Below, one piece after another: positions 30,654-63,980 of a stretch of DNA of 64,000 nt. Position numbers and translations under genes: made by a program. The notes under the pieces were generated by a model. That model did not search any database. It was not told where the DNA came from and was given only the letters and a program-made list of their open reading frames with translations. The stretch lies in the NCBI GenBank assembly GCA_964514165.1, contig CAZEPS010000001.1:1800-65799 (forward strand). The letters are read 5' to 3'. How positions within the stretch are numbered: position 1 is the first letter of the stretch; every line of letters starts with the position of its first letter. Origin of the DNA: an uncultured Leptospirales bacterium (lineage in GTDB: Bacteria > Spirochaetota > UBA4802 > UBA5550).

Positions 30654-30684
30654 GATACCCCTCCACTCTGTTGTTTCTTTAGGG

Positions 30685-30809
30685 AACCTCTATTTATTAA
30701 ATATGAGGTTACCGTTTGGGTACGCAATATGGTTTAAATGTTACAGAGCCTTGATTAATCAAGGCCCTATAACTTTGTTAGATGTACCCTTTAATTGCAC
30801 AATTAATTC
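30685..30809. repeat. Copy of the composite intergenic repeat between rfbB and rfbD, overlapping the rfbD stop
   Basis: It contains an AACCTC-14 nt-GAGGTT hairpin, TTTGGGTACGCAATATGG, an 18-bp perfect palindrome GCCTTGATTAATCAAGGC that includes the rfbD stop codon, and TTAGATGTACCCTTTAATTGCACAATTAA. The last block encodes the final 11 aa of RfbD. Confidence 0.65.
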
Positions 30810-31646: not shown

Positions 31647-32191
31647 TGAAACACCTCAGCATTCGCCAGAAACGGGAGCTTCCCGTCTTTTTCTGAGACC
31701 AGTGGATTTTCAATCTCCCAGTCCACGTTGATATCGGGATCATCCCACCTGATTCCCCGTTCCAGGTCCGGAGCGTATTCGTCTGTGCACTTGTAGAGTA
31801 AATGCACGTCGTCAGTGAGGGTCAGAAACCCATGGGCGAATCCCGGAGGGACATACATCATCAGGCTGTTCTCTGCAGTCAGCCTTTCACTGACCCACTG
31901 AAGAAAGGTGGGAGAGTTTTTCCTGATATCCACCGCCACGTCGAGCACGGCACCTTTTATCACGCGTACCAGTTTCCCCTGGGCCATTGGAGGCAGCTGA
32001 TAGTGGAGTCCCCTGAGAACGTTTTTTTGAGAGTAGGAGTGATTGTCCTGGACAAAGGCGGCATCGATGCCGTTCTTCGCGAAATCGCTCTTCTTGTATG
32101 ATTCGAGAAAGAACCCTCTCCCGTCAGGGAACACACGGGGTTCGATAAGAATCACGTCCTCTAACGCAAAGCTCCTGAAGGTAAAGGGCAT
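31643..32191 (-). CDS. rfbC: dTDP-4-dehydrorhamnose 3,5-epimerase
   Basis: 182 aa cupin. RGLHYQ...KLVRVIKGAVLDVAVD matches RmlC. Confidence 0.9.
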   Translation of the reverse strand: MPFTFRSFALEDVILIEPRVFPDGRGFFLESYKKSDFAKNGIDAAFVQDNHSYSQKNVLRGLHYQLPPMAQGKLVRVIKGAVLDVAVDIRKNSPTFLQWVSERLTAENSLMMYVPPGFAHGFLTLTDDVHLLYKCTDEYAPDLERGIRWDDPDINVDWEIENPLVSEKDGKLPFLANAEVFQ

Positions 32192-32192
32192 G

Positions 32193-33071
32193 TTATCCCT
32201 CCATCTCCATTACTTTCAACAGGTACTCGCCATAGCCGGACTTGAGCAGGGGGTCGGCAAGGTCCCGCAGTTCATCAGCGTTAATGTATCCCATCTTATA
32301 GGCTATCTCTTCAATACACGAGATCTTCAAGCCCTGCCGGTCCTCGATTGCCTTGACAAAACTAGAGGCTTCATGCATGGAAGCGTGGGTCCCGGTGTCG
32401 AGCCAGGCGAACCCCCTTCCCATGAGTTTGACCCGAAGCCGGTTTTTCTCCATGTAGGTCGTGTTGATGTCGGTAATCTCAATCTCCCCCCGGGGCGACG
32501 GTTTCAAGGATTTCGCTATTTGAACCACGTCGTTGTCGTAAAAATACAGACCGACCACGGCATAGTTTGATTTCGGCTTTTCCGGCTTCTCTTCAATGGA
32601 TGTTACACTGCCGTTTTTATCGAACGCCACGACACCGTACCGCTCAGGGTCTTTCACGAAGTAGCCGAACACAGTTGCCCCTTCCTTCTGTGAAGCAGCT
32701 TCCCGGAGCAGTTCCGGAAGCCCGTGGCCGTAAAACAGGTTGTCACCGAGTATCATGCACACTGAATCATTTCCGATGAATTCATCGCCGATTATAAAGG
32801 CGTCCGCCAGACCCCTCGGGTATTCCTGTACCCGGTATGTCAGGCTGATACCGAATTTGTTTCCGTTACCAAGAAGATTTTCGATACGCGGGGTGTCCTC
32901 AGGTGTAGAGATAATGAGAATATCCCTGATCCCCGCCAGCATAAGTGTCGAAAGGGGATAATAGATTGTTGGTTTATCGTACACCGGAAGCAGCTGTTTG
33001 CATACAACCTGCGTCAGGGGATAGAGCCTTGTGCCGGACCCGCCGGCGAGAATTATTCCTTTCATGTGCAC
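32193..33071 (-). CDS. rfbA: Glucose-1-phosphate thymidylyltransferase
   Basis: [18 protein letters not shown] at the N-terminus. The exact start codon is uncertain: the first codon of the track ORF or the ATG two codons in. Confidence 0.9.
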
Positions 33072-33123
33072 TCCTTCGCAACAGTATTAGTTATTAAAGT
33101 TTTTCTACAACTCAATTACATTT

Positions 33124-34413
33124 TTAAATAGATACGGCATTGCTGTTTTTATTTTTGTTATTTAAAACCAAAGGAGCATAAAGTACAAAAAGAAAAAACA
33201 AATCCTCAATCCAAAAAAAAGTAAAAAAAAGCATATCTTCAAAGAAACTGTAAACTAAAAATGATAAAACAATTCCTGCAAGTATTCTATAATGCTTATT
33301 CTTAAAACCTAAGACCATAATATATGTTATAACTGAAATAAATACGATTGATGCAATTATACCATAACGGCCCCATGTTTCCAGGATTACATTATGTAAA
33401 GAAGTTAACTTCAGTACCAGGATATTTGTTTTTGCAGCGTAACCCTTTCCAAATAAAAATTTTATTATATCAAAATTATTAAACTGATCCTTCAAAAAGA
33501 TTATCCAGATATCAATTCTTTTCGAGCTACCGGTCTTGAGTGTTTTTTCAATTATTATATCCAGTAATCCAGTACGGATAATACCAGCTATAAAAATCAG
33601 GAATATAGCTGATAATAGGATGAAAAACCATTTCTTATTGAAAATTTCTTTTATATCGTTAAATAATATGAATAAAACAACAATTGAAAAAATAAAACTT
33701 GAAAGAATACAATTACGGCAACGGGACACCAGAATAAAAATAATAAAAATACAGGAATGAAGAAAAAACAAAATCGATATCATGTACCCTTTTTTAATTT
33801 TATAATACATGAATAAAGATGTAGAAGACAAAAAACCAATTAATAACGAATATCCAAATCTATTAGGATTTATAGGAATTCCAAAATTATTTTTATTATT
33901 TATCAGTACAATAAACTCATTAACGGATTTAGAAGCAGCCAAACTGTTTATATCAGGAATAATAATTAATAATATGTTTAAAATTGAAATTATAAATACC
34001 GTGTATAAGATAATGATTAAAAACTTTTTATCTTTATGTATAATCCAAAAAGAAGAAATACATAAATAAGAAAACCCAATTATTAATGGCTCTACAATAT
34101 TAACATATAACTGTTCCCCGCTCAATATTCCAGAAAAAATCATCAAGGTAATAAATACAAAGATCAGTTTTTCATCAATTCTAAATGTTAAACCATTCCC
34201 ATAAATTCTATGAACAAAGAATGATATCAATATTGCAAATATTGCAAGTTTAAAACCTTTATACAAAACATTGTTATTAATAATTGCAGGTAACGTGAAA
34301 AGATAGGAAATAAATAACAACGAAATCAGTAATGAAATAACAATTATATCATTATAGAATAGATTGAAGAGTTTATCTAAATAATTATACTTAATTTTTT
34401 TAATCATTGTCAT
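33124..34413 (-). CDS. Polytopic membrane protein, probable O-antigen polymerase/ligase (Wzy/O-antigen ligase-like)
   Basis: 429 aa with about 10-12 TM helices and a larger periplasmic loop, in a very AT-rich and evidently foreign-composition segment. No conserved motif, so the call rests on topology and locus context. Confidence 0.5.
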   Translation of the reverse strand: MTMIKKIKYNYLDKLFNLFYNDIIVISLLISLLFISYLFTLPAIINNNVLYKGFKLAIFAILISFFVHRIYGNGLTFRIDEKLIFVFITLMIFSGILSGEQLYVNIVEPLIIGFSYLCISSFWIIHKDKKFLIIILYTVFIISILNILLIIIPDINSLAASKSVNEFIVLINNKNNFGIPINPNRFGYSLLIGFLSSTSLFMYYKIKKGYMISILFFLHSCIFIIFILVSRCRNCILSSFIFSIVVLFILFNDIKEIFNKKWFFILLSAIFLIFIAGIIRTGLLDIIIEKTLKTGSSKRIDIWIIFLKDQFNNFDIIKFLFGKGYAAKTNILVLKLTSLHNVILETWGRYGIIASIVFISVITYIMVLGFKNKHYRILAGIVLSFLVYSFFEDMLFFTFFWIEDLFFLFVLYAPLVLNNKNKNSNAVSI

Positions 34414-34576
34414 AAACTTAATAATGCACTTATTTTGGTATCTACTCAGCTATTGCTGAATAGATGTACATTTTTATAAAAATTGGCTATATAACTCTTT
34501 TTCATGTAATGTGCACATAATTGCACATAGCTGAGTAATTACTTATTCTGTATATATCTAAATGTATCAGGATTAT

Positions 34577-35458
34577 TTACCTGTGAAGACCCTCGAACTT
34601 TCCAAATTTTCCCTTTTTGAAATCAATATAGCCCTGTATAATAGAACTGATTTTTTTTAATTTATCTTTTTCAAACAGAACAATCTTACTGAATTCATAG
34701 AAGAAAGCCTCAATTTGCTCTTTTTTATATTGCGGAAACTCATTTTGATATAATTTCGATACATGACATGCATTTCTCGTTATATAATATCTTCTTCTGG
34801 GTGAATGGTTAGTTGTTACCTGAGGTCTACAAAATAGATTGTGATGTGTGATATTACCGAGATTGTGATCCATAATCACTGCATTTACCCTGAGTACATG
34901 ATATCTATTACTATGTAGACGCAAACAATATTCATCATCAACTTTATCAATAAAAAGCTGATTACAATATCCTCCAACCTTTGAGTAAATATCCAGGTTT
35001 ACCAGATTACCGGACGTCAAGACGCAAAGCTGTTCTTCAACTTCCTTTTCTGGCACCTGTGTGTATGAGTTATCACTGGGGAATGGGGCCATTACTCCGA
35101 CATTATTTAGATTATAACTATATTTTTCTGTATAATAAACTAGATTATTAACCGTATTTTTCCTTAACCTGCTATCCTGATCCATAGTCAACATATAATT
35201 ATATCCCCTGTCAATGGCCAGTTGAGCTCCTGTATTCAAAGCAGCGGCGATACCAATATTCTCATTATTTCTATGTACGATTACTCTTTCATGTTCCGCT
35301 ATTGATAGTAACGATTCTGGAACAGGACCCTCAGTATTATCAATAACAATAAGCAGATCTATCTGATCAATATACGTATTAACAATATCAGGAAAATCAT
35401 CAGCAGGCTGAAAAGTTACCACTACACCACAGATTTTTTGTTTAGATACATTCATCAT
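34577..35458 (-). CDS. Glycosyltransferase family 2
   Basis: ICGVVVTFQPADDFPDIVNTYIDQIDLLIVIDN, with DxD downstream. GT-A fold. Confidence 0.75.
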   Translation of the reverse strand: MMNVSKQKICGVVVTFQPADDFPDIVNTYIDQIDLLIVIDNTEGPVPESLLSIAEHERVIVHRNNENIGIAAALNTGAQLAIDRGYNYMLTMDQDSRLRKNTVNNLVYYTEKYSYNLNNVGVMAPFPSDNSYTQVPEKEVEEQLCVLTSGNLVNLDIYSKVGGYCNQLFIDKVDDEYCLRLHSNRYHVLRVNAVIMDHNLGNITHHNLFCRPQVTTNHSPRRRYYITRNACHVSKLYQNEFPQYKKEQIEAFFYEFSKIVLFEKDKLKKISSIIQGYIDFKKGKFGKFEGLHR

Positions 35459-35643
35459 AGTACCAGTACATTTTTTTGTGCAAATTTTTACAAATGGTTC
35501 CTCTATATGATAGCGTCAAGAAAGATTTACAATGCATATTATAATTGACAATTACTGGTATCATGCGGGAAGGAAAAAATACTTGCATTTCATATGTTTA
35601 GGAAAATCCTATCCATTTAAATAAGAGAAACGGCAATTTTTCC

Positions 35644-37269
35644 ATGCTTTTTAATTCATTACAATTCATGCTTTTTTTCCCGGCAGTAGTAATTATTTAC
35701 TATCTGCTCCCGTACCGATGGCGGTATCTCCACCTGCTGTTCGCCAGCTATTTCTTTTACATGAGCTGGGAACCAGGCTATGCGATATTAATTTTTATTA
35801 CAACAGTTATTGTGTATACCACCGGCATCGCCATGCATGGAAAATCAAAAGCTGTCAAACGGCGACTGGTGGCCCTGAGTATCGTATCCAATCTCGGAAT
35901 CCTCTTTACTTTCAAGTATTTTAATTTTTTCAGCAGTAATTTTAACAACCTTTTCTCGTTTATGGACCTTAACCTGACATTTCCCTATCTCAAATTTCTC
36001 CTCCCAGTGGGGATTTCATTTTACACCCTTCAGGCACTGAGTTATACAATCGATTTATATCGCGGTGACAGGGAACCGGAACGCCATTTCGGTATATTCG
36101 CCCTGTATGTCAGTTTTTTTCCCCAGCTTGTGGCCGGTCCCATCGAGCGGTCAACTAGGCTGATGCCCCAGTTTCATGAGAAATTTGATTTTGACTATAA
36201 CAGGGTCGTAGACGGACTTAAAATAATGGCCTGGGGTTTCTTTAAGAAACTGGTTGTAGCCGACCGTTTGGCGCAATATGTCGATATCGTTTATAATAAT
36301 CCTCAGGCCCATGAAGGCGGTGTGCTGGTCATAGCCACCTATTTCTTCATATTTCAGGTCTATTGCGACTTTTCAGCCTATTCTGACATAGCTATCGGAG
36401 CAGCCCAGGTCATGGGTTACCGGCTCATGGACAATTTCAAACGGCCCTATCACTCGAAAAGTATAGCTGAACTGTGGCAGCGGTGGCATATCTCTCTGAC
36501 ATCATGGTTTAGAGATTACGTGTATATACCCCTCGGGGGAAACAGGGTATCCGAGTTACGGTGGAACATCAATATATTGATTGTATTCGTGCTCAGCGGC
36601 CTGTGGCATGGAGCTGAATGGACCTTTGTTGTGTGGGCCTCCCTGAACGGTATCTTTACCATTATCGGATTCTACACGGCCAAAAATCGAAAGGCATTAA
36701 AAGACCGGCTCTTCAATATTCTCATTACCGGAAACACGGTACTGGTAGCCGGGGTTGGTCTTGCTGCTGTATTATTTGGCGTCGTTACGAATGAAATCGG
36801 CCTCAGCGCGGATGTCGGTATTAATATAAAGAAGATATTCTTCCTGCTCATCGGATCCTTCATTATTTTTTCAACTATCGGAAAGTTTGTAAACAGAGAT
36901 TTCATCTCAGCTTCTATCGAAAATGTTAAAAAACTTATCAGTATCCTCATCACCTTCCATCTTTTTACCATAGCCGGTGTATTCTTCAGGGCTAAATCGA
37001 TACAGGACGGCTGGTATATAATAACCCATTCTTTCAGCAGGAACTGGGACAACCTTAGACTCGCCTTCAGCAAGACGGATTTTTTCTACATGTTTCTCTC
37101 AATAATCATAATGGAAGGATTTCATGTTATCCAGAGCCATGGAAGCATCCGCCAGATGCTCAGAAACAAGCCCCTGATCATTCGCTGGATATTTTATTAC
37201 CTCCTCATCCAGTCGATCATTCTCTACGGTGTATTTGAGGAGAAACAGTTTATCTATTTTCAGTTTTGA
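35644..37269 (+). CDS. MBOAT-family membrane O-acyltransferase (AlgI/DltB/PatA-like)
   Basis: Polytopic, with the conserved MBOAT His region WQRWHISLTSWFRDYVYIPLGGN and a second WHGAEW. Confidence 0.8.
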   Translation: MLFNSLQFMLFFPAVVIIYYLLPYRWRYLHLLFASYFFYMSWEPGYAILIFITTVIVYTTGIAMHGKSKAVKRRLVALSIVSNLGILFTFKYFNFFSSNFNNLFSFMDLNLTFPYLKFLLPVGISFYTLQALSYTIDLYRGDREPERHFGIFALYVSFFPQLVAGPIERSTRLMPQFHEKFDFDYNRVVDGLKIMAWGFFKKLVVADRLAQYVDIVYNNPQAHEGGVLVIATYFFIFQVYCDFSAYSDIAIGAAQVMGYRLMDNFKRPYHSKSIAELWQRWHISLTSWFRDYVYIPLGGNRVSELRWNINILIVFVLSGLWHGAEWTFVVWASLNGIFTIIGFYTAKNRKALKDRLFNILITGNTVLVAGVGLAAVLFGVVTNEIGLSADVGINIKKIFFLLIGSFIIFSTIGKFVNRDFISASIENVKKLISILITFHLFTIAGVFFRAKSIQDGWYIITHSFSRNWDNLRLAFSKTDFFYMFLSIIIMEGFHVIQSHGSIRQMLRNKPLIIRWIFYYLLIQSIILYGVFEEKQFIYFQF

Positions 37270-37276
37270 GGGAACT

Positions 37277-38305
37277 ATGGGCTTACGAAGATTTATTGTA
37301 AATGCTACTATTCTCGTGATAATTTCACTGGGCCCCCTGGCCATGTATAATTTATATATGGATACGTTTGTTGTGTTCCGTAAAGATTATTCAGGCCATA
37401 AGAACGTTGCTAACCAGCATTACCTGAAGATAAAACACCTGCTCGACAACAAAACAAAGTATGACTCATACCTGTTCGGATCATCAAAAGTCGGCAGAAC
37501 CGAATGCTGCATGGTCCCATACGGAGAATGGTATAACATGTCCTATTCCAAAGGAGTCCCCCTTGATCATTTAAATGACCTGAAACTTATGCTCAGAAAA
37601 GGGGTACATGTTAAAAACGTACTCATCGGAATAGACATGCTCTCATACAAAATCAATCCCTATGAAAATTATACCCAGGCACTATGGAAACCCTACCCTG
37701 AAACACTCTATGAAAAATTAGAGTTTTTTATCAGTTACCTGTTGCTGAAACCGGTTGGCAAACTATTCGTTCAGAAAAAAACTGAAATGGTGTTTTTCGA
37801 TCGGTACCAAACCGGTGTCCTGTTCAATCCCGAAATTGATGCTAATATCGAAAAAAATCTTGAAAAACACATAAACGCTGACTATTTCAATGAAGGCTGG
37901 ACAACCGCAGGAGACAGGGTTAAGAAAACTCTTAATGAAATCAGGGAAATCCTGGAACTATCCGAACAACATGGTATTACATGCAAGATCTTCCTGAATC
38001 CTGAACATCCAAAAACATACATAGATAACGGGGTAGATCAGTTCTATAAGTTCAAAAAAGGTCTCGCAATGCTGACAGATTACTGGGATTTCAGCGGTAT
38101 TGACAGTATCTCAACCAGCAATTATTATTTTTATGAAACACTCCACTACCGTCCCATGGTGGGTACAATGATGATGGAGATCATGTTTGATCTTGAAAAG
38201 AAAACCGCACCTGCTGACTTCGGGTCTTATGTAACCAGTGAAACCATTGATGAGCACATAAACCGGCAGAATTCAGATCTCAGCACATACCTTTCATCAC
38301 AATAG
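37277..38305 (+). CDS. Periplasmic partner of the MBOAT acyltransferase (DltD/AlgJ/AlgX-like), putative
   Basis: N-terminal TM anchor and FGSSKVG, a possible SGNH/DltD-like Ser motif. Position immediately after the MBOAT gene, overlapping its stop. Low sequence certainty. Confidence 0.4.
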   Translation: MGLRRFIVNATILVIISLGPLAMYNLYMDTFVVFRKDYSGHKNVANQHYLKIKHLLDNKTKYDSYLFGSSKVGRTECCMVPYGEWYNMSYSKGVPLDHLNDLKLMLRKGVHVKNVLIGIDMLSYKINPYENYTQALWKPYPETLYEKLEFFISYLLLKPVGKLFVQKKTEMVFFDRYQTGVLFNPEIDANIEKNLEKHINADYFNEGWTTAGDRVKKTLNEIREILELSEQHGITCKIFLNPEHPKTYIDNGVDQFYKFKKGLAMLTDYWDFSGIDSISTSNYYFYETLHYRPMVGTMMMEIMFDLEKKTAPADFGSYVTSETIDEHINRQNSDLSTYLSSQ

Positions 38306-38311
38306 AATTAC

Positions 38312-39772
38312 ATGAAAAACAAACAGCGACTTTTCATCAATTCCATCTTCATGACCTCTGCCACTCTGTTCGAAAAATTAATTTTTTTCATAGCAACAAT
38401 GATAATAGCACGGTATCTCAGTGCGGAACAATACGGTGAATATGCAACAGCCCTTGGAATAGCAACTTTTTTCGGACTCATTTCAAATCTCGGTATAGCC
38501 GGCACTGCGATTCGTGCAATAAACCTGAAACCGGAATTCGAGGACCAGTACTATTCAAGCATCCTCGTCCTGAAGACTTTCCTGTCACTGGTCATTTATG
38601 GAGGCCTCCTCGGCTATCTTGCTCTCGCTTCATTCATGCAGTTCTATAACACTGATCCGGTCAGGAATAAAAGCGTCATTATTCTCACCGTAATATTCGG
38701 GCTCGTCAGGCTGTCCACAGAATTTATCCAGACAACCTACTCCCTGTTTGAAGCAAAGGAAAAATTCAAACTTATATCCGGAGCGTTGGCCCTTTTTTCA
38801 ATATTGTATATAACAGGCACACTCATAGTGGTTCTCTACAGGGGCGATTACTTTGATATAGTTTCCGTAAGACTCGGTATTAATGTCATATTCATGCTCG
38901 GAATCCTTTATACACTGACTAAATTTTATACGTTCAACTTCAAGCTAAAGAACCTGAAAATATTTCTAATCGAGTCCATACCTTTCTCACTGACATTTAT
39001 TTTCGCCAATGTCATCATCAACACCAGTATATTTCTTTTACCGGTTATACATGAAACAGTGTATGCGGGATATTACCAGAATGCCTTTCTCTTCTATATA
39101 TCAATTTCTTTTATACCCATCAGCATGGCCAAGGTACTCCTCCCGTTCCTGTTTAAGTTCAAATTTGACGTTAATCCAGATAAGTTTCAATTCGCCTTCA
39201 AAATTTATTCCAAGTTTTTCAGTATCGTATCGTTTTTTTTCGTTATCATCTTCTTTATCTTTTCCCATGAACTAATCACCTACATTTTCGGCGATAAATA
39301 CAGTGAATCCATACCCGTACTGCAGGTCTTCGCCCTGGCTGTCCCCTTTTCCTCAAACCCGGCGCCGTGGATAATAACGACCCTTGACAAGCAGGAATAT
39401 AATTCCCTGATTAACGGGATTGCAGCAGTGATAAACATAATAGCCAATATATTACTTATCTGGTATTTCAAGGCTGAAGGAGCGGCAGCAGCAATGGTTA
39501 TAACCTTTGCCGTGATTTACCTCCTGTCCCACATCTATCTGGTCAAGAATGGATATGTCAGGTATACCCCTGTTTTTCTTATGCGCCTGAAGCTTTTAAT
39601 CACAGTTGTCTGTATCTACCTGGCCAACAGTTTTATTTTTCAAGATATGTTTTTCATCATCCCCCTGGCCGTTTCCGTACTGGTTTACCTTGCCGTTGTC
39701 TATGTATTCATAATGGAAAAGGATGATTTCAGAATTATACGGGAAACCCTTCCCCTGAACAGGGGTGAATGA
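38312..39772 (+). CDS. wzx: Polysaccharide biosynthesis protein / oligosaccharide flippase (Wzx, MOP superfamily)
   Basis: 486 aa with about 12-14 TM helices and the typical PST-family length and topology. Confidence 0.7.
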   Translation: MKNKQRLFINSIFMTSATLFEKLIFFIATMIIARYLSAEQYGEYATALGIATFFGLISNLGIAGTAIRAINLKPEFEDQYYSSILVLKTFLSLVIYGGLLGYLALASFMQFYNTDPVRNKSVIILTVIFGLVRLSTEFIQTTYSLFEAKEKFKLISGALALFSILYITGTLIVVLYRGDYFDIVSVRLGINVIFMLGILYTLTKFYTFNFKLKNLKIFLIESIPFSLTFIFANVIINTSIFLLPVIHETVYAGYYQNAFLFYISISFIPISMAKVLLPFLFKFKFDVNPDKFQFAFKIYSKFFSIVSFFFVIIFFIFSHELITYIFGDKYSESIPVLQVFALAVPFSSNPAPWIITTLDKQEYNSLINGIAAVINIIANILLIWYFKAEGAAAAMVITFAVIYLLSHIYLVKNGYVRYTPVFLMRLKLLITVVCIYLANSFIFQDMFFIIPLAVSVLVYLAVVYVFIMEKDDFRIIRETLPLNRGE

Positions 39773-39773
39773 C

Positions 39774-40460
39774 ATGGTTTACGGTGTTATATTGTCCGGT
39801 GGATCCGGCAGGAGAATGAACGCCCCCATGCCGAAACAGTTTCTCGACCTTGGTCACATGCCGGTTATCGGATGGTCGATAAAAGCATTCCGGGATCATC
39901 CTCTTATTGACGGCCTGGTTATCGTGAACCATCCGGAATACCGGGACACCCTGCAGCAGGTAATCGATAAACTGCATGTTTCCAATTACTGTGTTATCGT
40001 TGACGGCGGCCACACGAGACAGGACTCATCGTACAACGCAGTCACATCAAGGCAATTCCGTGAAGACGATATTCTTCTCATTCATGATGCCGCGCGTCCC
40101 TTCATCACTGACGAACTCATAACACGATGTATAGAAAAGACCAGGGCCAACGGTGCGGCAGGTGTATATGTATCTGCAATAGATACTATCGCACAGATAA
40201 ATAATGGGTTTGTCGAATCCATACCGGACAGGAACATACTTTACCATACTCAAACACCGCAGGGATTCGTGTATGCACCCTTACTGAAAGCCCACAGGAA
40301 CGCGAAGAAGAATAACCTGACCGGTATTTCCGATGATATCTCCCTCCTGTTGAATGACGGTCAGCGGGTCGCTACAATAGCCGGCGATTACCGGAATATT
40401 AAGATAACGAATGTACAAGACCTTGCCTATGCCAGATTTCTGATTACTCACCAGCAGTAA
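39774..40460 (+). CDS. IspD/TarI-family cytidylyltransferase (2-C-methyl-D-erythritol-4-P or ribitol-5-P cytidylyltransferase)
   Basis: VILSGGSGRRMNAPMPKQFLDLGHMPVIGWSIKAF N-terminus. By context (last gene of the polysaccharide locus) a CDP-alditol/CDP-sugar role is as likely as isoprenoid IspD. Confidence 0.7.
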   Translation: MVYGVILSGGSGRRMNAPMPKQFLDLGHMPVIGWSIKAFRDHPLIDGLVIVNHPEYRDTLQQVIDKLHVSNYCVIVDGGHTRQDSSYNAVTSRQFREDDILLIHDAARPFITDELITRCIEKTRANGAAGVYVSAIDTIAQINNGFVESIPDRNILYHTQTPQGFVYAPLLKAHRNAKKNNLTGISDDISLLLNDGQRVATIAGDYRNIKITNVQDLAYARFLITHQQ

Positions 40461-40947
40461 AACTGATCCACGTTTTTACCATGAATAGGAACCTTTTCTA
40501 TCAAAACTGAACACCGCTGTGAACACCGCTAATATTACCCGTAAGATGATATACATCGATTAATAAGCATCTTCCGGATGCAACCCCCTTAAAAAAACTT
40601 GACATTAAACTGACTGAAACTTTCCATTACGGAACACTTTTCCCAGAAGGAGCAAATAATGACTGGTTGCAGTTACAGTACATTATTTTATTTTGTCACT
40701 AACGGAGGAATCACGATCAGGCATAAGATCATGGCCAGTAGTGTCATTAATCCGACCAAAACAATCGCCAGCTCCAGCAAGATAATCGAAAATATATCAT
40801 GCGAAGACGGGGAACCTGCCTCAATCACGAGGATGTACCCTGTCAGTGTCTCTCGGATATGGCCTGTCGCCAAGCCTCTTTCATCAGTTATTTCACCGGA
40901 TCAAGCAGGACATCACGTATCAGGAACCCAGCAGTCAATATAGATAA

Positions 40948-41877
40948 ATGAAGATTTATAACGATATTCCTGAAAACAAGAATCTTTTTAACAATCCAGT
41001 CGTAACCATCGGAACCTTTGACGGAGTCCACATCGGCCATCAGAAAATACTGAAAAAACTGCGGGAATCTGCAGATGCCCTGAACGGCGAAGCTGTTGTA
41101 ATCACATTTTCCAACCATCCGAGAAAAGTCCTCTTTCCAGATCAATCAACAAGGATCCTGACTACCTCTGAGGAAAAGGTCAAAGCAATCTACGGATTCG
41201 GCGTGTTAAATATCATTCTTCTCGACTTTACCCCGGACATGGCGAACATGACAGCCCATGATTTCTATTCTGGAATTTTATTGAAGAAACTCGACCTCAA
41301 GGGCATAGTAATAGGATACGACCACGCCTTCGGAAGGGACCGGGAGGGGAATTACGATTACCTGAAAAAAATTACCGGAAATGCCGGAATCACTTTAACC
41401 AGGGTGGAAGAGGAAGACTTCCACACCTATCCCGTTTCATCCACCTGGATACGCAACGAAATTGAATATGGCAGAATCCGAAGGGCGAACACCCTTCTCG
41501 GAAGGCCCTATTCATTGAAGGGAAGGGTCACCAGGGGGGCCGGAAGGGGACGAAAACTTGGCTTTCCCACTGCCAACATCGTGCCAGAAAATCCGGATAA
41601 AATCATACCCGGTGACGGTGTATACGCGGTTACTGTTTTGCTGGATGACAGAACCGGGAAGAATGGCATGATGAATATCGGGATTAATCCCACCTTCCAG
41701 TATCGGGGAAGATCTCTTGAAGTGAATATTTTTGATTATGATAATACCCTTTATGACAGAGATATTGACGTCAGTTTTCACGCCAGAATAAGGGATGAAA
41801 TCCGGTTCAGCTCAATTGATGATCTTATTGCGCAGATGAATATTGATAAACAGAGTGCCTTGAAAGTACTTGGATAA
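40948..41877 (+). CDS. ribF: Bifunctional riboflavin kinase / FMN adenylyltransferase
   Basis: VVTIGTFDGVHIGHQKIL (the FAD synthetase HxGH motif) and the C-terminal riboflavin kinase PTANI...GVY region. Confidence 0.85.
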   Translation: MKIYNDIPENKNLFNNPVVTIGTFDGVHIGHQKILKKLRESADALNGEAVVITFSNHPRKVLFPDQSTRILTTSEEKVKAIYGFGVLNIILLDFTPDMANMTAHDFYSGILLKKLDLKGIVIGYDHAFGRDREGNYDYLKKITGNAGITLTRVEEEDFHTYPVSSTWIRNEIEYGRIRRANTLLGRPYSLKGRVTRGAGRGRKLGFPTANIVPENPDKIIPGDGVYAVTVLLDDRTGKNGMMNIGINPTFQYRGRSLEVNIFDYDNTLYDRDIDVSFHARIRDEIRFSSIDDLIAQMNIDKQSALKVLG

Positions 41878-41975
41878 AAAAAGATAAAACCGTTTTCAAC
41901 CAAATACGTACCTAAAAAGGATCCTCTCGTATAATTATTAGCGGTTCCCTGAAAATATTCCGTTAATGTAATTAA

Positions 41976-43121
41976 TTAATATCTGCAAGAAACACCAAAA
42001 CTCACCTTATATGCAGAGAAATCCCTTCCAATTGTTACAAGTCTCAATTTCGGATCCACGTGAACAACTATGTAACTGTAATTCGGATACCGAACCATTA
42101 TAAAGCGATTCATCCGCTCCATCCTGGAGAGGGAAGCACCGATATTATGTTCTATTCCATAATTAATATTGAGCTGCAGCCCATTAACCGGCTTTATAAT
42201 ACACCCGATATCCGGGCTGAGTATAAAAAAATTGATCGAATCCGTTCCGATTCCAAAATCCAGTGACAGGGAAAGGAATTTAAAAACCTCGTAATAGGCT
42301 GACAGGGATGTTATATATCGCCTGTAGGTATCATTATAGTAACTGTACCGTTCAACATAATAGTCAAAAGTAAGGTCAATGCCGGCTTTTTTATTTACGA
42401 AATAGCTCAATGAGATACCGGGATTGTCTTTCTTTATTTCAGTATCATATAGAGACAGCGTGTAAGCGGCCTTGGCAAAAGTATTAAATGAGTAGAGCGT
42501 CCATGTGTAGTTATAAACGATCTCAATCATGAAATCATTGAATATCCCGACTAAACCTGCATGGTAGTAAGACGATCTGTAATGATCAAACCAGCTTGAA
42601 TACTGATAATCTCCGTAAATTTCCATAAAGCTGAAGGGATAAATTGACAGGGAAACCTCCGGGCGGTGGAAATTGATCTCCCTGTATGTTTGAAACCCGT
42701 CTGTTATCTGGTAATCAATAAACCTCGAGTATCCGGCAGATATTCTAAAAAAGGTATGCTCAAGCGTAACCATGCCATAAGGCTGGTATGTCATGTTTTC
42801 AGGGCTGATCCCGAGGGAATAATAGCCCTTAAAACCAACATTAATTGAATACGAAAACTGCTTCTGTTTATCTTTTTCACTCTCTTTCTGGTATCCGGTT
42901 TCTTCTTTCTCGCCAACATGAGAATCTTTTATTCTTTCCTGCTCATGGGCCACATCATTACCTGATTCATTACCATTAGCATCCCCGTATTCCCGGTTTT
43001 CAATAGTATCAATTTCTTCACCATGTGCCGGTGTGATAACCCGCATCTTTCCATTATACAAAACTCCCCATAAACCCAGTATTGCAAGAAGAGTTATAAC
43101 ATTTTTTTGTAGCATAATCAT
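41976..43121 (-). CDS. Hypothetical secreted Tyr-rich protein, possible outer-membrane barrel
   Basis: Signal peptide, Glu/Lys-rich linker, then about 250 aa of alternating aromatic/polar strands. AT-rich DNA. Confidence 0.4.
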   Translation of the reverse strand: MIMLQKNVITLLAILGLWGVLYNGKMRVITPAHGEEIDTIENREYGDANGNESGNDVAHEQERIKDSHVGEKEETGYQKESEKDKQKQFSYSINVGFKGYYSLGISPENMTYQPYGMVTLEHTFFRISAGYSRFIDYQITDGFQTYREINFHRPEVSLSIYPFSFMEIYGDYQYSSWFDHYRSSYYHAGLVGIFNDFMIEIVYNYTWTLYSFNTFAKAAYTLSLYDTEIKKDNPGISLSYFVNKKAGIDLTFDYYVERYSYYNDTYRRYITSLSAYYEVFKFLSLSLDFGIGTDSINFFILSPDIGCIIKPVNGLQLNINYGIEHNIGASLSRMERMNRFIMVRYPNYSYIVVHVDPKLRLVTIGRDFSAYKVSFGVSCRY

Positions 43122-43557
43122 AATACCCGATCCTTTTTATGCATCGAAAACAGGTAATGTCTCAAAACCTGTATTTACTATTAAGCCTGAAATTTCACAA
43201 CTGGGTTTTAGTCAATTATACCCACGGACATAAATATAAGATGATGCGCATACAGAATCACCACATATCAAATACCTGTAATACATGTTTCAACCAGTTT
43301 TTAAGAATTATGAAAAATTTTACCTATATACTCGCGAAAATATTTAGGGAACATCTATTATTAAACAAGAGACACCCTTTACTTATCTGTTTCAATATTT
43401 TTCTTTCTCTGTTTTATCATATACATCTACTACTCTACAAATAGTATGGAAAAATTTAATGATAAAGAGTCGTATTGTATTAATAGTTCCAGCCGCTGTT
43501 TAGATTTACTTGTTCTTGACAAAACCGATTATGCAGCATTGAATACATCCTGAAATC

Positions 43558-44100
43558 ATGATAGAAAGAAAATTCATTGATGATTTATACACCAGTTACA
43601 GCAGGGAACTGGCAATTTATATTTACAGTTTCGTTAAATCCAGCGAAACGGCTGAAGATATTCTCCATGACCTTTTCGTAAAAATCATAAAATATTCCGA
43701 AAACCACTTTATTGACCCGGCCAGTGCCCGGGCGCTCCTGTACAAATCCGCCCGGAATCTCTGCATCCGTCACATACAAAAAAACAAGAAGATAACAACG
43801 AGCCAGCTTGAAGAGAACCTGAAATATGACTGCAGTGAATCCGTCGAAAAGAGTATTGAAGATCAGGAACTCATGGATCGTATTCACGACCTTGTCGATT
43901 CAAGGGACCCGAAAACCAGGTCCGTTTTCTACATGAGAACCGAACTGAACATGCAGTTCAAGGAAATCGCCGAAATAATGAAAATATCCGAGCGGACAGC
44001 CAAACGAAAAATGAGCCTTGTTCTGTCGTTTCTGTCTGAATCCCTTGAAAATGAAGGGTATTCAAAAAAAATTCTCATTTTTATGTCATTTTTACTATGA
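43558..44100 (+). CDS. ECF-subfamily RNA polymerase sigma-70 factor
   Basis: Region 2 (ILHDLFVKII) and the region 4 HTH (MQFKEIAEIMKISERTAKRKMS). Confidence 0.8.
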   Translation: MIERKFIDDLYTSYSRELAIYIYSFVKSSETAEDILHDLFVKIIKYSENHFIDPASARALLYKSARNLCIRHIQKNKKITTSQLEENLKYDCSESVEKSIEDQELMDRIHDLVDSRDPKTRSVFYMRTELNMQFKEIAEIMKISERTAKRKMSLVLSFLSESLENEGYSKKILIFMSFLL

Positions 44101-50101: not shown

Positions 50102-50959
50102 TCAAATCGTCACGACCATTCCTTCCCTGGCTCCAATAACCTCTAAATGTGGTTTTGAAGATTTTTTTACAGAACTGATCATCTTATCAATAAAGGAATC
50201 ATCATGGTAGGGATCATGGTGAAAGGTGTAGAGTTTTTTGACCTCGCTGTTCCTTGCAAGCCTGACGACCCCTTCAATGGTCGAATGACCCCATCCAGCC
50301 TTATTCGGATATTCCCTGTCAGTGTACTGGCACTCCGCCACCAGAATGTCAGCTCCCCGTATCAGGCCCTGTATGTTTTCAAGGTTGAATTCGGGTATTT
50401 CTTTATTAACTATTAATTCATTATCAGTGGCATATACGAAGACCTTGCCCCTGTATTCAAGCCTGAACCCGAGTGAAAGGGCGGGATGCATAAGATGGGT
50501 ATGATATATCTCTATGTCACCGATGGTCAGTGGATTATCGTACAGCTCGTGAAAAACCAGGTTCGATGACACCTCTTCAAGGATAACGGGAAAGTATTCC
50601 CGTTTCATCTGCCCGGCGAGAAGATCCTTGATGTCATGAAAATAATGCCCCCCGTAAACATGTATCTCCTTCTCTTTCATATACACATAACTGAAAAAGG
50701 GGAAACCCTGGATATGGTCCCAGTGGGTATGGGTGATAAGCAGGTGTACTGATGCCGGTTTATCTCCGAATTCATCAACAAGTGACCGCCCCAGATTTTT
50801 CAATCCTGTTCCCGCGTCAAAAATCAGAATCGTATCGCCGCATCTGACCTCAATGCACGGGGTATTTCCACCGTATTTCAGGAATTCCCTGCCAGGGGTC
50901 GGGATAGACCCCCGCACACCCCAGAACCGTATAAACAAATCTCCTCTTGTATCTTTCAT
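50102..50959 (-). CDS. MBL-fold metallo-hydrolase
   Basis: HLLITHTHWDHIQGFPFF contains the HxHxDH metal-binding motif. Confidence 0.75.
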   Translation of the reverse strand: MKDTRGDLFIRFWGVRGSIPTPGREFLKYGGNTPCIEVRCGDTILIFDAGTGLKNLGRSLVDEFGDKPASVHLLITHTHWDHIQGFPFFSYVYMKEKEIHVYGGHYFHDIKDLLAGQMKREYFPVILEEVSSNLVFHELYDNPLTIGDIEIYHTHLMHPALSLGFRLEYRGKVFVYATDNELIVNKEIPEFNLENIQGLIRGADILVAECQYTDREYPNKAGWGHSTIEGVVRLARNSEVKKLYTFHHDPYHDDSFIDKMISSVKKSSKPHLEVIGAREGMVVTI

Positions 50960-50980
50960 AATAACAATATCGGCTGATAC

Positions 50981-51137
50981 TAATGATAATTCTATCGAAT
51001 CGATAGAATTATCATTAGGGGACTTCTAAAACTATGTTTTTGAAGTCCCCTTGTGTGCACAAAGTTTGATAAAACCAGCATTTACAATTATAAGGATAAT
51101 TGTAAATGCTGGTTTTTAGATGTGCCCATTAAATGAG
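50981..51137. repeat. Composite intergenic repeat element (most complete copy)
   Basis: It contains a 37-bp perfect palindrome (50981-51017), a hairpin GGGGACTTCTAAAAC..GTTTTTGAAGTCCCC (51018-51050), TGTGCACA, an 18-bp perfect stem hairpin ACCAGCATTTACAATTAT-aagg-ATAATTGTAAATGCTGGT followed by TTTTT (51074-51118), and the block AGATGTGCCCATTAAAT. Confidence 0.7.
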
Positions 51138-51232
51138 AATAGTCAAAGAGTGAGTAAAATTAATCATTTCATAAACATTACCGTTATCTTTTTTTCATGG
51201 CAGTGTAAAACCCGATTAATCGTCTATTGCTC

Positions 51233-51261
51233 TTGACAAATCAGATCAATAAATATATAAT
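51233..51261 (+). promoter_or_regulatory. Consensus sigma70-type promoter (TTGACA-17-TATAAT) upstream of cheD
   Basis: TTGACA at 51233-51238, an exact 17-nt spacer, and TATAAT at 51256-51261, about 50 nt upstream of the cheD ATG. Confidence 0.6.
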
Positions 51262-51310
51262 ATGATATCCGTTATGCATCTGAAATAAGTGTAAGGACAA
51301 TAACAAAGGC

Positions 51311-51796
51311 ATGGAAAAGACACTACTAAACGTTGGGGTTGCCCAGATCAAAAGCGCCCAGAGTCCAACTATCTTAAGGACAATTCTTGGCAGCTGCGTC
51401 GGCATCTGCATCTACGACAGGATGAAGAAGATCGGAGGCATGGCGCACATACTCCTCCCCCATGATCAGAGCCAGGGCGCCAAACCGGAAAAATATGCTG
51501 ATTCGGCAATCCCGATGCTCTATAAACTGCTGATGAAAGAGGGGGCCAACAAGGAATTCCTGTCGGCGAAAATTGCCGGAGGCGCCTCCATGTTTAAATT
51601 CGACACCAACCTGGCCCTTGGCCAGATCGGTATTCGAAACGTTGAGGTCACCAGGGAGGTACTGGAAAAACTCGGCATTCCGGTTGTTGAAGAGGACGTG
51701 GGGGGAAATATGGGTCGAGTTATTGATTTTTTTCTCAATGATGGTCACTTAAAGATCAAGGCCGGCGGGCAAGAAAAAATGTACTATAAAGTCTAA
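51311..51796 (+). CDS. cheD: Chemoreceptor glutamine deamidase CheD
   Basis: The GSCVGICIYD catalytic Cys motif and the overall ~160-aa CheD pattern (HILLP...). Confidence 0.8.
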   Translation: MEKTLLNVGVAQIKSAQSPTILRTILGSCVGICIYDRMKKIGGMAHILLPHDQSQGAKPEKYADSAIPMLYKLLMKEGANKEFLSAKIAGGASMFKFDTNLALGQIGIRNVEVTREVLEKLGIPVVEEDVGGNMGRVIDFFLNDGHLKIKAGGQEKMYYKV

Positions 51797-51814
51797 ATAT
51801 TCCTGGAGATTTCG

Positions 51815-52675
51815 ATGAACGAACAGATAAAACAAAGAATTGATTCAGTGATAAACAATATTGATCAGCTTCCGTCCATTCCCGATGTTGCGAGTAAAAT
51901 CATAAACATGATCAATGACCCGGACGTATCATTTAAGCAGGTCGCCGATGAGATCTCCAAGGACCAGGCGATGACCACAAATATTCTGAAACTCGCGAAC
52001 TCCGCCTACTTCAGCAAGGGAAAGGAGATAACCTCTGTCGACCGTGCCATAGTCACCCTCGGCCTCAGGGAAGTTAAGGACATCATAATGGTCATCGTTA
52101 CCAAACCGGTTCTCGACAAACCGATAGCGGGATACGACCTGGCCAAGGGTGACCTCTGGAAGCAGGGACTGGTCGTCGCGGCCCTGTCAAAAAAACTGGC
52201 TTTGGCCAGGAAAAGAAAAGATATTTCCGATATCGTTTTCACCGGCGGAATACTTCACAACGTGGGGAAGGTGGTCATCTCGCTCTACGTTCATACCGCT
52301 TTCAAGGAAATAATGAGCGCTGTTGAAAACAATAACATTTCTTTTGATGAAGCCGAAAAAGAGGTAACCGGATACAACCACCACGAGGTCGGTGAAAAAA
52401 TACTTGCCAAGTGGAACTTTCCGGCAGTACTGAAATCGATAGTCCGTTATTACCAGAACCCCGCGCAGGCACCTGATGAGCACCACTACGAGGTGAGCAC
52501 CGTCCACATCGCCAATGCTGTCTGCCTGATGGCCGGTATCGGCGTCGGCAGCGACGGCCTGTACCATCAAATAGCAAAGTCAGCAATGGAAACAGTCGGC
52601 GTCAAGGACGCGGATATGCAGAGGCTGTATGAGCTTGTACCGGAGACGGTGAAACAGGTCCAGGTTTTAATGTAG
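51815..52675 (+). CDS. HDOD domain signalling protein
   Basis: LPSIPDVASKIINMINDPDVSFKQVADEISKDQAMTTNILKLANSAYF is the typical HDOD N-terminal region, with the degenerate HD-fold His/Asp pattern downstream (HHEVGEKIL). Confidence 0.8.
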   Translation: MNEQIKQRIDSVINNIDQLPSIPDVASKIINMINDPDVSFKQVADEISKDQAMTTNILKLANSAYFSKGKEITSVDRAIVTLGLREVKDIIMVIVTKPVLDKPIAGYDLAKGDLWKQGLVVAALSKKLALARKRKDISDIVFTGGILHNVGKVVISLYVHTAFKEIMSAVENNNISFDEAEKEVTGYNHHEVGEKILAKWNFPAVLKSIVRYYQNPAQAPDEHHYEVSTVHIANAVCLMAGIGVGSDGLYHQIAKSAMETVGVKDADMQRLYELVPETVKQVQVLM

Positions 52676-52680
52676 CATCG

Positions 52681-53088
52681 ATGCATATCATAAAAAACTG
52701 CGGTTCGTGCGGTAAAAAAATTCGATTCCCCATCGACAGGGGCAGGATTCAGGTATTTTGCAGGTGCGGCTTTTCATTTGAAGCTGATCCCGATGATCCC
52801 GAACTCTACAACAATGCCCGGTTTGACCTCATGGCCGGTGAAAAAACCCGGAAAAAAAAGCCTCACCAAAAGGGCCGCCATTTTGATATCCAACAGTTTA
52901 CTGATGAGTTGATTAACCGGTTTCTTCAGATTAAATACAAGGTACAGAATTTCCCCGTTCTCACGGCCAGGGACCAGAGAAAAATGGCGGCGGCCGCAGT
53001 ACTGATTATTCTGCTCCTCTCCCTTCTCATTTACCTGGCAATTGAGCTTTCGGGGCCGACTCCACGGCCCGGCAAGATTGTACTGTAG
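52681..53088 (+). CDS. Zinc-ribbon protein with C-terminal TM helix
   Basis: CGSCGKK...FCRCG, a four-Cys ribbon, a basic linker, and a C-terminal hydrophobic helix AAAAVLIILLLSLLIYLAI. It is translationally coupled to the next gene by a 2-nt gap. Confidence 0.5.
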   Translation: MHIIKNCGSCGKKIRFPIDRGRIQVFCRCGFSFEADPDDPELYNNARFDLMAGEKTRKKKPHQKGRHFDIQQFTDELINRFLQIKYKVQNFPVLTARDQRKMAAAAVLIILLLSLLIYLAIELSGPTPRPGKIVL

Positions 53089-54341: not shown

Positions 54342-54527
54342 GTAATAATCCTCGCCTGTAAATTATATGGGTACATCCGAACCGAATAATCACTACATAA
54401 CTGGCAAACCGGTTTTTCTGAAACTTTGTTCTGATTTTCTGTTACAGAAGTACCCTGTTAGTGTTTGTATAAGTGCTTAAACTATTTTAAGCCTGGTCAC
54501 AGCATGTCAAGCCAAATCCGGAGTTAT

Positions 54528-54986
54528 TCATTGATAATTTTTCAGTTCCCTCTGCACGTCGCGGTCCATGTCCCGTTTCTGTATGGCTTTTCTCTTATCA
54601 TATTTGGCCTTCCCCTTTCCGAGCCCGAGCTCGACCTTTACCTTTCCGTTTTTCATGTAGAGTCTCAATGGAACCAGGGTGAGCCCCTTTTCCTGGAGCT
54701 TGCCGGTCAGGCGCTTAATCTCGTGCTTGTGCAGGAGGAGTTTTCTCTCCCTGAGGGGATCATGGTTGAAACGGTTTCCCATGTCGTATTCGGATATGTT
54801 CATACCCACCAGGTATGCCTCTCCGCTCTTAATCCGGGCGTAGGCCTCCTGGATGCTGACCTTCTTCTGGCGGATTGACTTGACCTCCGTGCCGTGAAGT
54901 ACGATTCCCGCCTCAAAGCGATCGAGGATCTCGTATTCGAAACGGGCCTTCTTGTTTTTAACGATGTCAACGGTATTGTTCATCAC
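54528..54986 (-). CDS. smpB: SsrA-binding protein
   Basis: KKARFEYEILDRFEAGIVLHGTEVKS is the conserved SmpB core, with a C-terminal basic tail. Confidence 0.9.
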   Translation of the reverse strand: MMNNTVDIVKNKKARFEYEILDRFEAGIVLHGTEVKSIRQKKVSIQEAYARIKSGEAYLVGMNISEYDMGNRFNHDPLRERKLLLHKHEIKRLTGKLQEKGLTLVPLRLYMKNGKVKVELGLGKGKAKYDKRKAIQKRDMDRDVQRELKNYQ

Positions 54987-55563: not shown

Positions 55564-55610
55564 GAGACTTCCGAAAACAATAAATTTTTGAAGTCCCCCC
55601 GTATTGCACC
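55564..55610. repeat. Copy of the GGGGGGACTTC-AAAA...TTTTCGGAAGTC hairpin repeat (minus orientation)
   Basis: The reverse complement reads GGTGCAATACGGGGGGACTTCAAAAATTTATTGTTTTCGGAAGTCTC. It is the same core as 51018-51050 and 63875-63910. Confidence 0.6.
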
Positions 55611-57712: not shown

Positions 57713-57757
57713 GAAACCTCGTTTTACATTTGCGTGATATGCAATGAATTTTAAGGT

Positions 57758-57870
57758 AACCTCTATCAAGCAAATACGAGGTTCCCCTTTGGGTACGTAA
57801 TATGAACCAGCACAATTTTCATGAAAACGGTGCTGGTCAAATTGCCATCTGCACCCTTAATTATTGACAA
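57758..57870. repeat. Copy of the composite intergenic repeat (AACCTC..GAGGTT / TTTGGGTACGTAATATG / CCAGCAC..GTGCTGG / GCACCCTTAATT blocks)
   Basis: Block-by-block similarity to 30685-30809 and to the 3' half of 63875-63980. Confidence 0.65.
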
Positions 57871-63236: not shown

Positions 63237-63872
63237 TTGTTACACGGTTATATGATTACAATCGTTAAAGTGAAATACAGTGACCGCTGTGTAACCCTCC
63301 ACCTTGACAGCGGTGAGACCCTCAGGCTGCCGCTGAACCTTTCCGGATTATACAACATCCAGCCTAAACAGGAGATAGATACCACCGAATACCGACAGCT
63401 CAAGGATGAATCGATGAGGTTCGAATGCAGGCAGAAGGCCCTGAATTATCTTGCCATGCGCTCGAGATCCACGAAGGAGATAACCGCATATCTTCAAAGA
63501 AAAAATTTCGACAGCGATATCATTGATGAATGCATCCAGCGCCTTAAAGGCGGAAAATACCTCGACGATCTTGAATACGCGAGACAGTACGTGAGAAACA
63601 AGACCGGCAGAAAATCCGTTGGAAAAAACCTCCTGATTCGTGATCTAATACAGAAGGGTATTCCAAAAAAAATTATAAACAGGGTCGTAAAAGAGAGCAT
63701 ACCTGAAACGGACATGAGCGCCCTCAAAGAACTGGCTGAAAAAAAATACCGGAGCCTGGAAGGCAAAAAGAACAGGGCCTACAAATTAAGCTATTTCCTT
63801 CACCAGCGGGGATTCGACAGCGAGGACATCCGGACCGTTATTGACATGATCGACGTTGACGACCTGGATTAA
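63237..63872 (+). CDS. recX: Regulatory protein RecX
   Basis: ALNYLAMRSRSTKEITAYLQRKNF...YLDDLEYARQYVRNK...KSVGKNLLIRDLIQKGI shows the three-repeat RecX helical pattern. Confidence 0.65.
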   Translation: MLHGYMITIVKVKYSDRCVTLHLDSGETLRLPLNLSGLYNIQPKQEIDTTEYRQLKDESMRFECRQKALNYLAMRSRSTKEITAYLQRKNFDSDIIDECIQRLKGGKYLDDLEYARQYVRNKTGRKSVGKNLLIRDLIQKGIPKKIINRVVKESIPETDMSALKELAEKKYRSLEGKKNRAYKLSYFLHQRGFDSEDIRTVIDMIDVDDLD

Positions 63873-63874
63873 TT

Positions 63875-63980
63875 GGGGGGACTTCTAAAAACTCATTTTT
63901 AGTCCTTTTTTGTGCATCCAGCACAATTTTTTGAAAAAAATGGTGCCGGGCTGATTATTTGATGTGCCCTTTAAATAAAA
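63875..63980. repeat. Copy of the composite intergenic repeat (GGGGGGACTTCTAAAAA hairpin / TGTGCATCCAGCACAATTTT / GATGTGCCCTTTAAAT blocks), possibly continuing past the window end
   Basis: Its 5' block matches 51018-51050. Its 3' blocks match 57806-57870 and 51118-51137. Confidence 0.65.

Follow-up and report, generated by a model that had tools for sequence, protein, structure and literature searches.

The cheD/MBL intergenic region and its palindrome

The window, meaning the whole 64-kb stretch of DNA analysed here, encodes proteins whose nearest counterparts belong to uncultured Spirochaetota. Within it, a gene for an MBL-fold hydrolase and cheD, the first gene of a cheD-HDOD-135aa-methyltransferase series, diverge from an intergenic region that carries three consecutive hairpins, IR1, IR2 and IR3, the latter two lying inside a MITE (Table 1). 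IR1, with the sequence TAATGATAATTCTATCGA-A-TCGATAGAATTATCATTA, is a palindrome of 37 bp with perfect 18+1+18 pairing, and both its sequence and its coordinates agree with the original prediction. Its symmetry axis falls on A50999, flanked by TATCGA and TCGATA. The stem is AT-rich, as had been described, and the ATCGAT taken for its central core (50999-51004) lies off-centre. Pairing reaches 19+1+19 (50980-51018) when one more pair is counted; because this 19th pair borrows G51018, the first base of the MITE, the native palindrome is 18+1+18. Each arm contains an internal quasi-dyad, GATA-N4-TATC, which gives two sub-sites 17 bp apart from centre to centre.

IR1 is non-random, far beyond chance. 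Perfect hairpin stems of at least 12 occur only twice in the window, in IR1 (19) and in IR3 (21), against a longest perfect stem that averaged 9.25 and never exceeded 11 in 40 block shuffles. As single-stranded DNA, IR1 has a predicted fold of -16.2 kcal/mol (z = -10), and the three-hairpin stretch is predicted to fold on either strand at about -74 kcal/mol, with z from -12 to -13. The IR2 hairpin, which directly abuts IR1 and extends to 16+3+16 with one mismatch when a flanking base is counted (51017-51051), and the perfect IR3 had both been overlooked, as had their membership in a dispersed repeat element.

A search for the half-site, proposed earlier as a check, returned no second copy of IR1 or of its half-site in the window, and an exact scan of the genome, metagenome and viral contig collections gave no copy of the full palindrome; further copies may lie elsewhere in the genome, beyond the 64 kb. 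The 18-mer half-site matched 54 metagenome and 2 viral positions, all without palindromic context and hence chance matches. Comparison of the intergenic region with plasmid and phage records by blastn yielded only noise with E of about 1, Rfam searches at gathering and permissive thresholds yielded only sub-threshold matches to generic hairpins of the miRNA type, and the cheD/MBL intergenic region contains no credible small ORF. No terminator-like site was found in 50700-51500; IR1 differs from an intrinsic terminator in its AT-rich stem, its flanks (GATAC and GGGG) and its divergent neighbour genes. Over 14 nt, TAATGATAATTCTA of the IR1 arm (50981-50994 / 51004-51017) resembles the inner IR3 arm TAAGGATAATTGTA (51091-51104), with 12 of 14 positions alike. 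This likeness is probably meaningless and about at chance level in an AT-rich region, where about four such matches are expected by the authors' estimate, and it was not used.

The MBL start codon, an ATG at 50959, lies 22 nt from IR1, as given originally. The distance of about 215 nt to the cheD promoter was also measured correctly, to the -35 element, and is inflated by a transposon insertion of 114 bp; about one third of what had been called a divergent control region is mobile DNA, namely the MITE. For the MBL gene itself, neither the window nor the closest relative, L153, offers a properly spaced hexamer pair or a good -35. With the MITE set aside, IR1 adjoins a hexamer that aligns with TATAAT in L153; this putative MBL -10 is now parted from the gene by the MITE. 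If it served as the -10, IR1 would span roughly -4 to +30, a plausible position for an operator. No regulator gene is adjacent to IR1, as had been stated. Among the window ORFs scanned with Pfam, the only helix-turn-helix-type matches are an ECF sigma factor (43558-44100), which sits 7 kb from IR1, and RecX (63237-63872), whose match is to three-helix HTH domains, and neither is a classical operator-binding regulator.

Table 1. Features of the region in the window, and the gene slot beside cheD in related contigs
Feature	Sequence	Coordinates	Strand	Remarks
IR1, perfect 18+1+18 palindrome	window	50981-51017	.	single copy, lineage-specific
MBL-fold hydrolase gene	window	50102-50959	-	285 aa
cheD	window	51311-51796	+	first gene of cheD-HDOD-135aa-methyltransferase
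cheD promoter-like site, TTGACA-17-TATAAT	window	51233-51261	+	12/12 sigma-70-like; -35 block conserved in relatives
TTTAAT, candidate ancestral MBL -10	window	51128-51133	-	aligns with TATAAT of L153
MITE copy A	window	51018-51127	+	110 bp, contains IR2 and IR3; nhmmer E = 3e-21
Left TSD copy, ATTA	window	51014-51017	.	last 4 nt of IR1
Right TSD copy, ATTA	window	51128-51131	.
IR2, MITE 5' hairpin module	window	51018-51050	+	15+3+15, one internal mismatch
IR3, MITE central hairpin	window	51071-51116	+	perfect 21+4+21 in copy A
MITE copy B	window	63877-63969	+	5 nt after recX stop codon; nhmmer E = 1e-21
MITE copy C	window	55566-55600	.	partial, 5' hairpin module only
MITE copy D	window	54369-54455	-	downstream of smpB; nhmmer E = 4e-11
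MITE copy E	window	30682-30789	+	TSD TTTA, overlaps end of rmlD ORF; nhmmer E = 2e-18
MITE copy G	window	57755-57856	+	TSD TTAA; nhmmer E = 3e-5
MITE copy H	window	41888-41952	-	partial or degenerate
Further MITE copy, probable	window	43164-43222		partial
Slot	L084	3417-3938		172-aa lipoprotein-like gene and MBL
Slot	L083	2457-3912		lipoprotein-like gene, MBL and DUF8295 gene
Slot	L163	3095-3619		lipoprotein-like gene only
Slot	L160	4387-4498		neither gene
Slot	L001	about 5400-5893		listed among variable slots
Slot	window and L153			MBL only
Split MBL frame	L153	2933-3826		86 + 192 aa; also in L154 and L155

A MITE family beside the palindrome

The terminal inverted repeats of copy A, GGGGACTTCTAAAA and, read on the reverse complement, GGGCACATCTAAAA, agree at 12 of 14 positions, and copies B, D, E and G have the same ends. 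The ends common to all copies read GGGnACnTC...GAnGTnCCC. All copies also share a 5' hairpin and a central hairpin closed by pairing with the right end. In contrast to the conserved ends, the central hairpin varies in sequence among copies and is shorter and imperfect outside copy A. The outer stem CCAGCA(C)/GTGCTGG persists in copies B and G, where it encloses short and imperfect inner hairpins, and IR3 in copy A is a longer, perfect form of this B/G-type hairpin. The predicted fold of copy A is -35.1 kcal/mol (z = -11.8).

Several searches bear on the dispersal of the family. The 15-mer GGGGACTTCWAAAAC has four sites in the window at 0-1 mismatch, and no site within that limit across 1.4 Mb of unrelated loci; an exact second copy of the 16-mer GATGTGCCCWTTAAAT lies at 63961; and collinear blast matches join 51018-51059 to 63877-63916 and 51108-51134 to 63950-63976. 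An nhmmer profile built from four copies finds five full copies (87-110 bp) in the 64 kb, with E from 1e-21 to 3e-5, and has no match in 1.4 Mb of other loci; the window also has three partial copies. The density is roughly one copy per 8-13 kb, most copies falling within the last 13 kb of the window. They are intergenic, in both orientations, and scattered among housekeeping genes (recX, smpB, rmlD, ribF). Perfect 4-bp TSDs flank three of the five full copies, ATTA for A, TTTA for E and TTAA for G, with none at B and D; given a background match rate of 0.5%, or 7% for AT-only 4-mers, the probability of at least three in five is no greater than 3e-3. No credible ORF lies inside the MITE block, and the scanned ORFs of the window include no transposase gene. 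In the viral contigs, the IR2 hairpin was not found, and 12 matches to the IR3 arm lack palindromic context and are read as chance.

Judged by its sequence features, namely the terminal inverted repeats, the TSD, the dispersed copies and an empty site in a relative, the block at 51018-51127 is a member of a non-autonomous MITE family. The family is previously undescribed, comes from an uncultured Spirochaetota lineage and adds to a class of mobile element that is already known. Bacterial MITEs include the Correia elements of Neisseria, ERIC, RUP and Nezha (surveyed in PMC3184786 and PMC11602168), and Spirochaete genomes are reported to be rich in MITEs (PMC11602168). The block resembles such elements in its size class of about 90-110 bp, its non-coding nature, its terminal inverted repeats and short AT-rich TSDs, its many intergenic copies in either orientation and its strong fold; like them, it can land in promoters or leaders. 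It differs in that the central hairpin varies between copies while the ends are conserved, and in that IR1 lies outside the element. No sequence similarity to named MITE families was found in phage or plasmid records.

Copy E reaches into the end of the rmlD ORF (30759-31646, minus strand), where it overlaps roughly the last 10 codons. The right TSD of this copy, TTTA, overlaps the first bases of the 7+2+7 palindrome TTAATTGCACAATTAA (30791-30806), so that copy E is a second case of a MITE landing at the edge of a palindrome, covering 3 nt of a 16-bp one.

The idea that IR1 belongs to the MITE was considered and rejected. The other copies have left flanks unrelated to IR1, the TSD places IR1 outside the element, and L153 has a stretch of the same length there. 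A related arrangement, with a second MITE in opposed orientation that shares IR2 and has IR1 as its central hairpin, was likewise set aside, as the flank of IR1 on the MBL side can be aligned to L153 and lacks a MITE end. The original prediction had named, as the finding that would count against it, membership of the palindrome in a longer repeat element present at many unrelated loci; IR1 stands outside the neighbouring repeat family, and no such membership was found.

Comparison with relatives

The closest syntenic relative, L153 (GCA_054919795.1), shares the divergent cheD/MBL arrangement, with an HDOD protein 87% identical and an MBL protein about 69% identical to those of the window. Once the MITE and one TSD are removed, the window's intergenic region measures 237 bp against 234 bp in L153, and the two can be aligned over the whole length between the start codons, with 170 identities in 271 columns (63%), the conserved parts being the cheD promoter block and several others. 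The site of copy A is empty in L153, which makes the MITE an insertion in the lineage of the window. A second assembly, L158 (Logan SRR7048224), is 100% identical to positions 51271-52809 over 1,539 bp, indicating that the same organism is present in that run; its contig breaks off 140 nt before the MITE is reached, which leaves IR1 uncovered.

At the position of IR1 itself, the stretch between the conserved anchors CAGsyCGATAyTGT...ATG and CATTAwAwGAGAATAG measures 36 nt in the window and 32 nt in L153, by hand count on the alignment, so that IR1 replaces sequence and adds none. The counterpart in L153 is non-palindromic, with only a small quasi-dyad, ATATgTCGAtATAT. Comparison of orthologous intergenic regions, which had also been proposed as a check, went against the original reading: no inverted repeat of at least 10 nt lies upstream of the MBL gene in L153, L081, L156, L157, L083 or L084. 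On this alignment, IR1 would be an in-place sequence change specific to the lineage of the window and not an inserted element; it is neither a part of the MITE, nor a member of a repeat family, nor a conserved operator. Since L153 is distant and the sole alignable relative, and since both IR1 arms are only about 50% identical to it (hand count), the change is not polarisable, and loss of a palindrome in L153 is equally possible.

The gene content of the slot between a conserved 343-aa gene and cheD varies among relatives, from both a lipoprotein-like gene (172-174 aa across relatives) and the MBL gene to neither (Table 1). No remnant of the lipoprotein-like gene was traced in the window by tblastn. 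The MBL frame of L153 is split, and the split recurs in three assemblies, one an NCBI MAG and two from Logan runs, which points to a real frameshift or to a pseudogene. Taken across relatives, the MBL/lipoprotein slot is unstable in evolution and would be undergoing loss or remodelling.

Origin of the palindrome and competing explanations

The best available explanation, with a probability of about 0.45, is that IR1 is a lineage-specific palindrome made in place by fold-back template switching, at whose edge the MITE later inserted. An intramolecular template switch during replication may have been primed at a short dyad already present around TCGA. It would have copied 18 nt, as their reverse complement, over about 18 nt next to them, altering the sequence in place and leaving its length unchanged. 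The 110-bp MITE then inserted into ATTA at the outer edge of IR1, duplicating ATTA and moving the upstream DNA, including the TATAAT-homologous hexamer, 114 bp away from the MBL gene. The order of the two events follows from the left TSD copy, which lies within the perfect arm and matches the right copy, so that IR1 predates the insertion. Today, IR1 would be DNA able to form a cruciform or an RNA hairpin, with no dedicated protein partner.

Template switching at quasi-palindromes is known to produce perfect palindromes, and perfect hairpins can arise in one step (PMC7202029, PMC7954356, PMC10710096). IR1 shows what such a process leaves behind, perfect arms (18/18) and replacement in place. 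It resembles the quasi-palindrome mutations described in E. coli and yeast (PMC7202029, PMC7954356, PMC10710096) in being a perfect inverted copy of adjacent sequence, in its in-place replacement with little change of length, and in the short dyad available as a primer, ATATgTCGAtATAT in L153; it differs in that the 18 nt copied stand at the long end of described events. The template-switch step is drawn from one distant comparison (63% identity in the intergenic region, 87% in HDOD) and is proposed on that footing. IR3, as a second long perfect hairpin, suggests a further product of a local process that homogenises arms. Conversely, the presence of two long perfect palindromes less than 100 bp apart, with none elsewhere in 64 kb, could mean selection for hairpins, and the site of IR1 just downstream of a -10-like hexamer would suit a repressor operator.

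That last point belongs to the reading closest to the original one, in which IR1 is the operator of a dimer-of-dimers repressor acting on the MBL gene, placed over its -10/+1 region, with the regulator encoded elsewhere in the genome. The position is plausible if the hexamer aligned to the TATAAT of L153 is the MBL -10; the distal end of IR1 overlapped that hexamer before the MITE arrived; the palindrome is single-copy and outside the MITE; and it has dyad symmetry, with a GATA-N4-TATC quasi-dyad in each arm. Among TetR-family repressors, palindromic operators can be as long as 28-40 bp; QacR is an example, with an IR1 operator of its own that measures 28 bp and takes two dimers. The 37-bp palindrome is like these operators in being a long dyad just downstream of a -10-like hexamer, with sub-dyads that could hold two dimers, and unlike them in having no nearby regulator gene, no conservation, no second site and a symmetry that is perfect throughout. 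The dyad is absent from L153 and from all other upstream regions of MBL orthologues examined, and neither GATAATTCTATC, TATCGAnTCGATA nor TGATAAT-N17-ATTATCA recurs in the window above shuffle expectation. No candidate regulator gene is adjacent or among the ORFs scanned in the 64 kb, the Fur-type 7-mers TGATAAT and ATTATCA stand 17 nt apart and not 1, and insertion of the MITE has since moved the promoter DNA upstream of IR1 away. Real long operators drift at uncontacted positions; arms that match at each of 18 positions go beyond the symmetry that protein contacts would preserve, which points to a recent mutational origin. An operator is therefore the weaker reading and unlikely, and a recent replication-error product in the leader of a decaying gene is more likely than a conserved regulator-binding site. 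Likeness to Fur, Zur, Cra, dif, DnaA-box and IHF sites was also judged by eye against their consensus sequences, and none fitted in spacing or sequence; for the Fur/Zur/PerR box (7-1-7, TGATAATnATTATCA), the 7-mers are 17 nt apart and a second half-site in each arm matches at 2 of 7 positions by hand count. The recombination site offered originally as the other option finds an echo in the insertion of the MITE into the last four bases of IR1.

Function at the RNA level, with IR1 and the MITE hairpins forming a 5' leader that stabilises or attenuates the MBL mRNA or marks it for RNase III, is improbable. Minus-strand RNA from 51135 to 50945 is predicted to form three strong consecutive hairpins (-73.6 kcal/mol, z = -11.9) that leave the start region free, with 21 nt between the end of IR1 and the AUG; on the minus strand, UUUUAU comes directly after IR3, so that IR3 could attenuate read-through. 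However, a transcript starting just after the TTTAAT/GATAAT hexamers would include IR1 only in part, no Rfam family is matched beyond the sub-threshold generic hairpins, and functional RNA hairpins tolerate G-U pairs or mismatches and are usually conserved, whereas IR1 is perfect and not conserved. Equally improbable is membership in a low-copy family of palindromic repeats, REP-like or minimal TIR-TIR elements, with its other copies outside the window. Nearly all other long intergenic hairpins in the window are mobile repeats, IR1 directly adjoins one of them, and the reported richness of Spirochaete genomes in MITEs (PMC11602168) fits such an origin. Yet the 64 kb contain no second IR1, against five full and three partial copies of the neighbouring MITE, and no copy exists in the genome, metagenome or viral collections. 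IR1 is like REP/BIME elements in being an extragenic palindrome beside other hairpin repeats, and unlike them in being single-copy and AT-rich, in lacking the GTAG head motif and a flanking direct repeat, and in adding no length to the relative's sequence (36 against 32 nt, hand count).

A mechanistic link between IR1 and the MITE has been considered as well, and it is a shade less probable than these two. The transposase could land on extruded palindromes, at the bases of cruciforms, an idea that derives from copy A sitting on the last 4 nt of the 37-bp IR1 and copy E covering the opening 3 nt of a palindrome of 16 bp. As another option, this genome could perfect its palindromes unusually actively, by a process that also reshapes the cores of the MITE hairpins. 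Either way, IR1 would be a target of structure-specific recombination and not an operator. An assembly artefact is very improbable. The source is an assembly of an uncultured organism, and the sole independent assembly found, the L158 contig, ends before IR1; on the other side, IR1 is internal to a long contig whose genes are intact and whose synteny is conserved to either side, its flanks align base for base with the relative, and 37 bp is too short for the usual fold-back chimeras.

The dimeric operator first envisaged thus retains a plausible position and a single-copy site, and lacks conservation, recurrence and a cognate gene in the 64 kb. On balance, IR1 looks like a young structural by-product in the leader of a decaying gene, beside a mobile element of known class. 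The main value of the analysis is a correction, in that an apparent regulatory dyad becomes a one-off palindrome beside a transposon scar, and the locus is an example of the operator-like patterns that mobile DNA rich in hairpins, together with replication errors of the fold-back kind, can leave in raw sequence. If IR1 did bind a protein, it would point to the regulator of an MBL-fold, possibly cyclic-nucleotide, phosphodiesterase near chemotaxis genes, for which the present data give no support.

Neighbouring features

Matches of the MBL protein to models of RNase Z, PhnP and "cyclic nucleotide-degrading phosphodiesterase" all stay below threshold; for its relatives, precomputed Pfam assignments give a weak match to Anti-Pycsar Apyc1. 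The MBL gene adjoins the cheD-HDOD signalling genes. On the cheD side, the -35 block at 51226-51245, CTCTTGACAAAT, which falls within ATTTGTCAAGAnCAnTAGA when the other strand is read, is better conserved than any other non-coding element of the intergenic region (L153 about 2800-2815; L083 and L084), as judged across relatives with 62-87% protein identity. Further along, smpB occupies 54528-54986 with MITE copy D just downstream, and neither tmRNA nor any other Rfam family was detected anywhere in the window. The stretch at 32000-44000 has a low GC content (0.32-0.44 against about 0.50) and encodes GT2, MBOAT and a Polysacc_synt flippase, and it looks like a surface-polysaccharide island.
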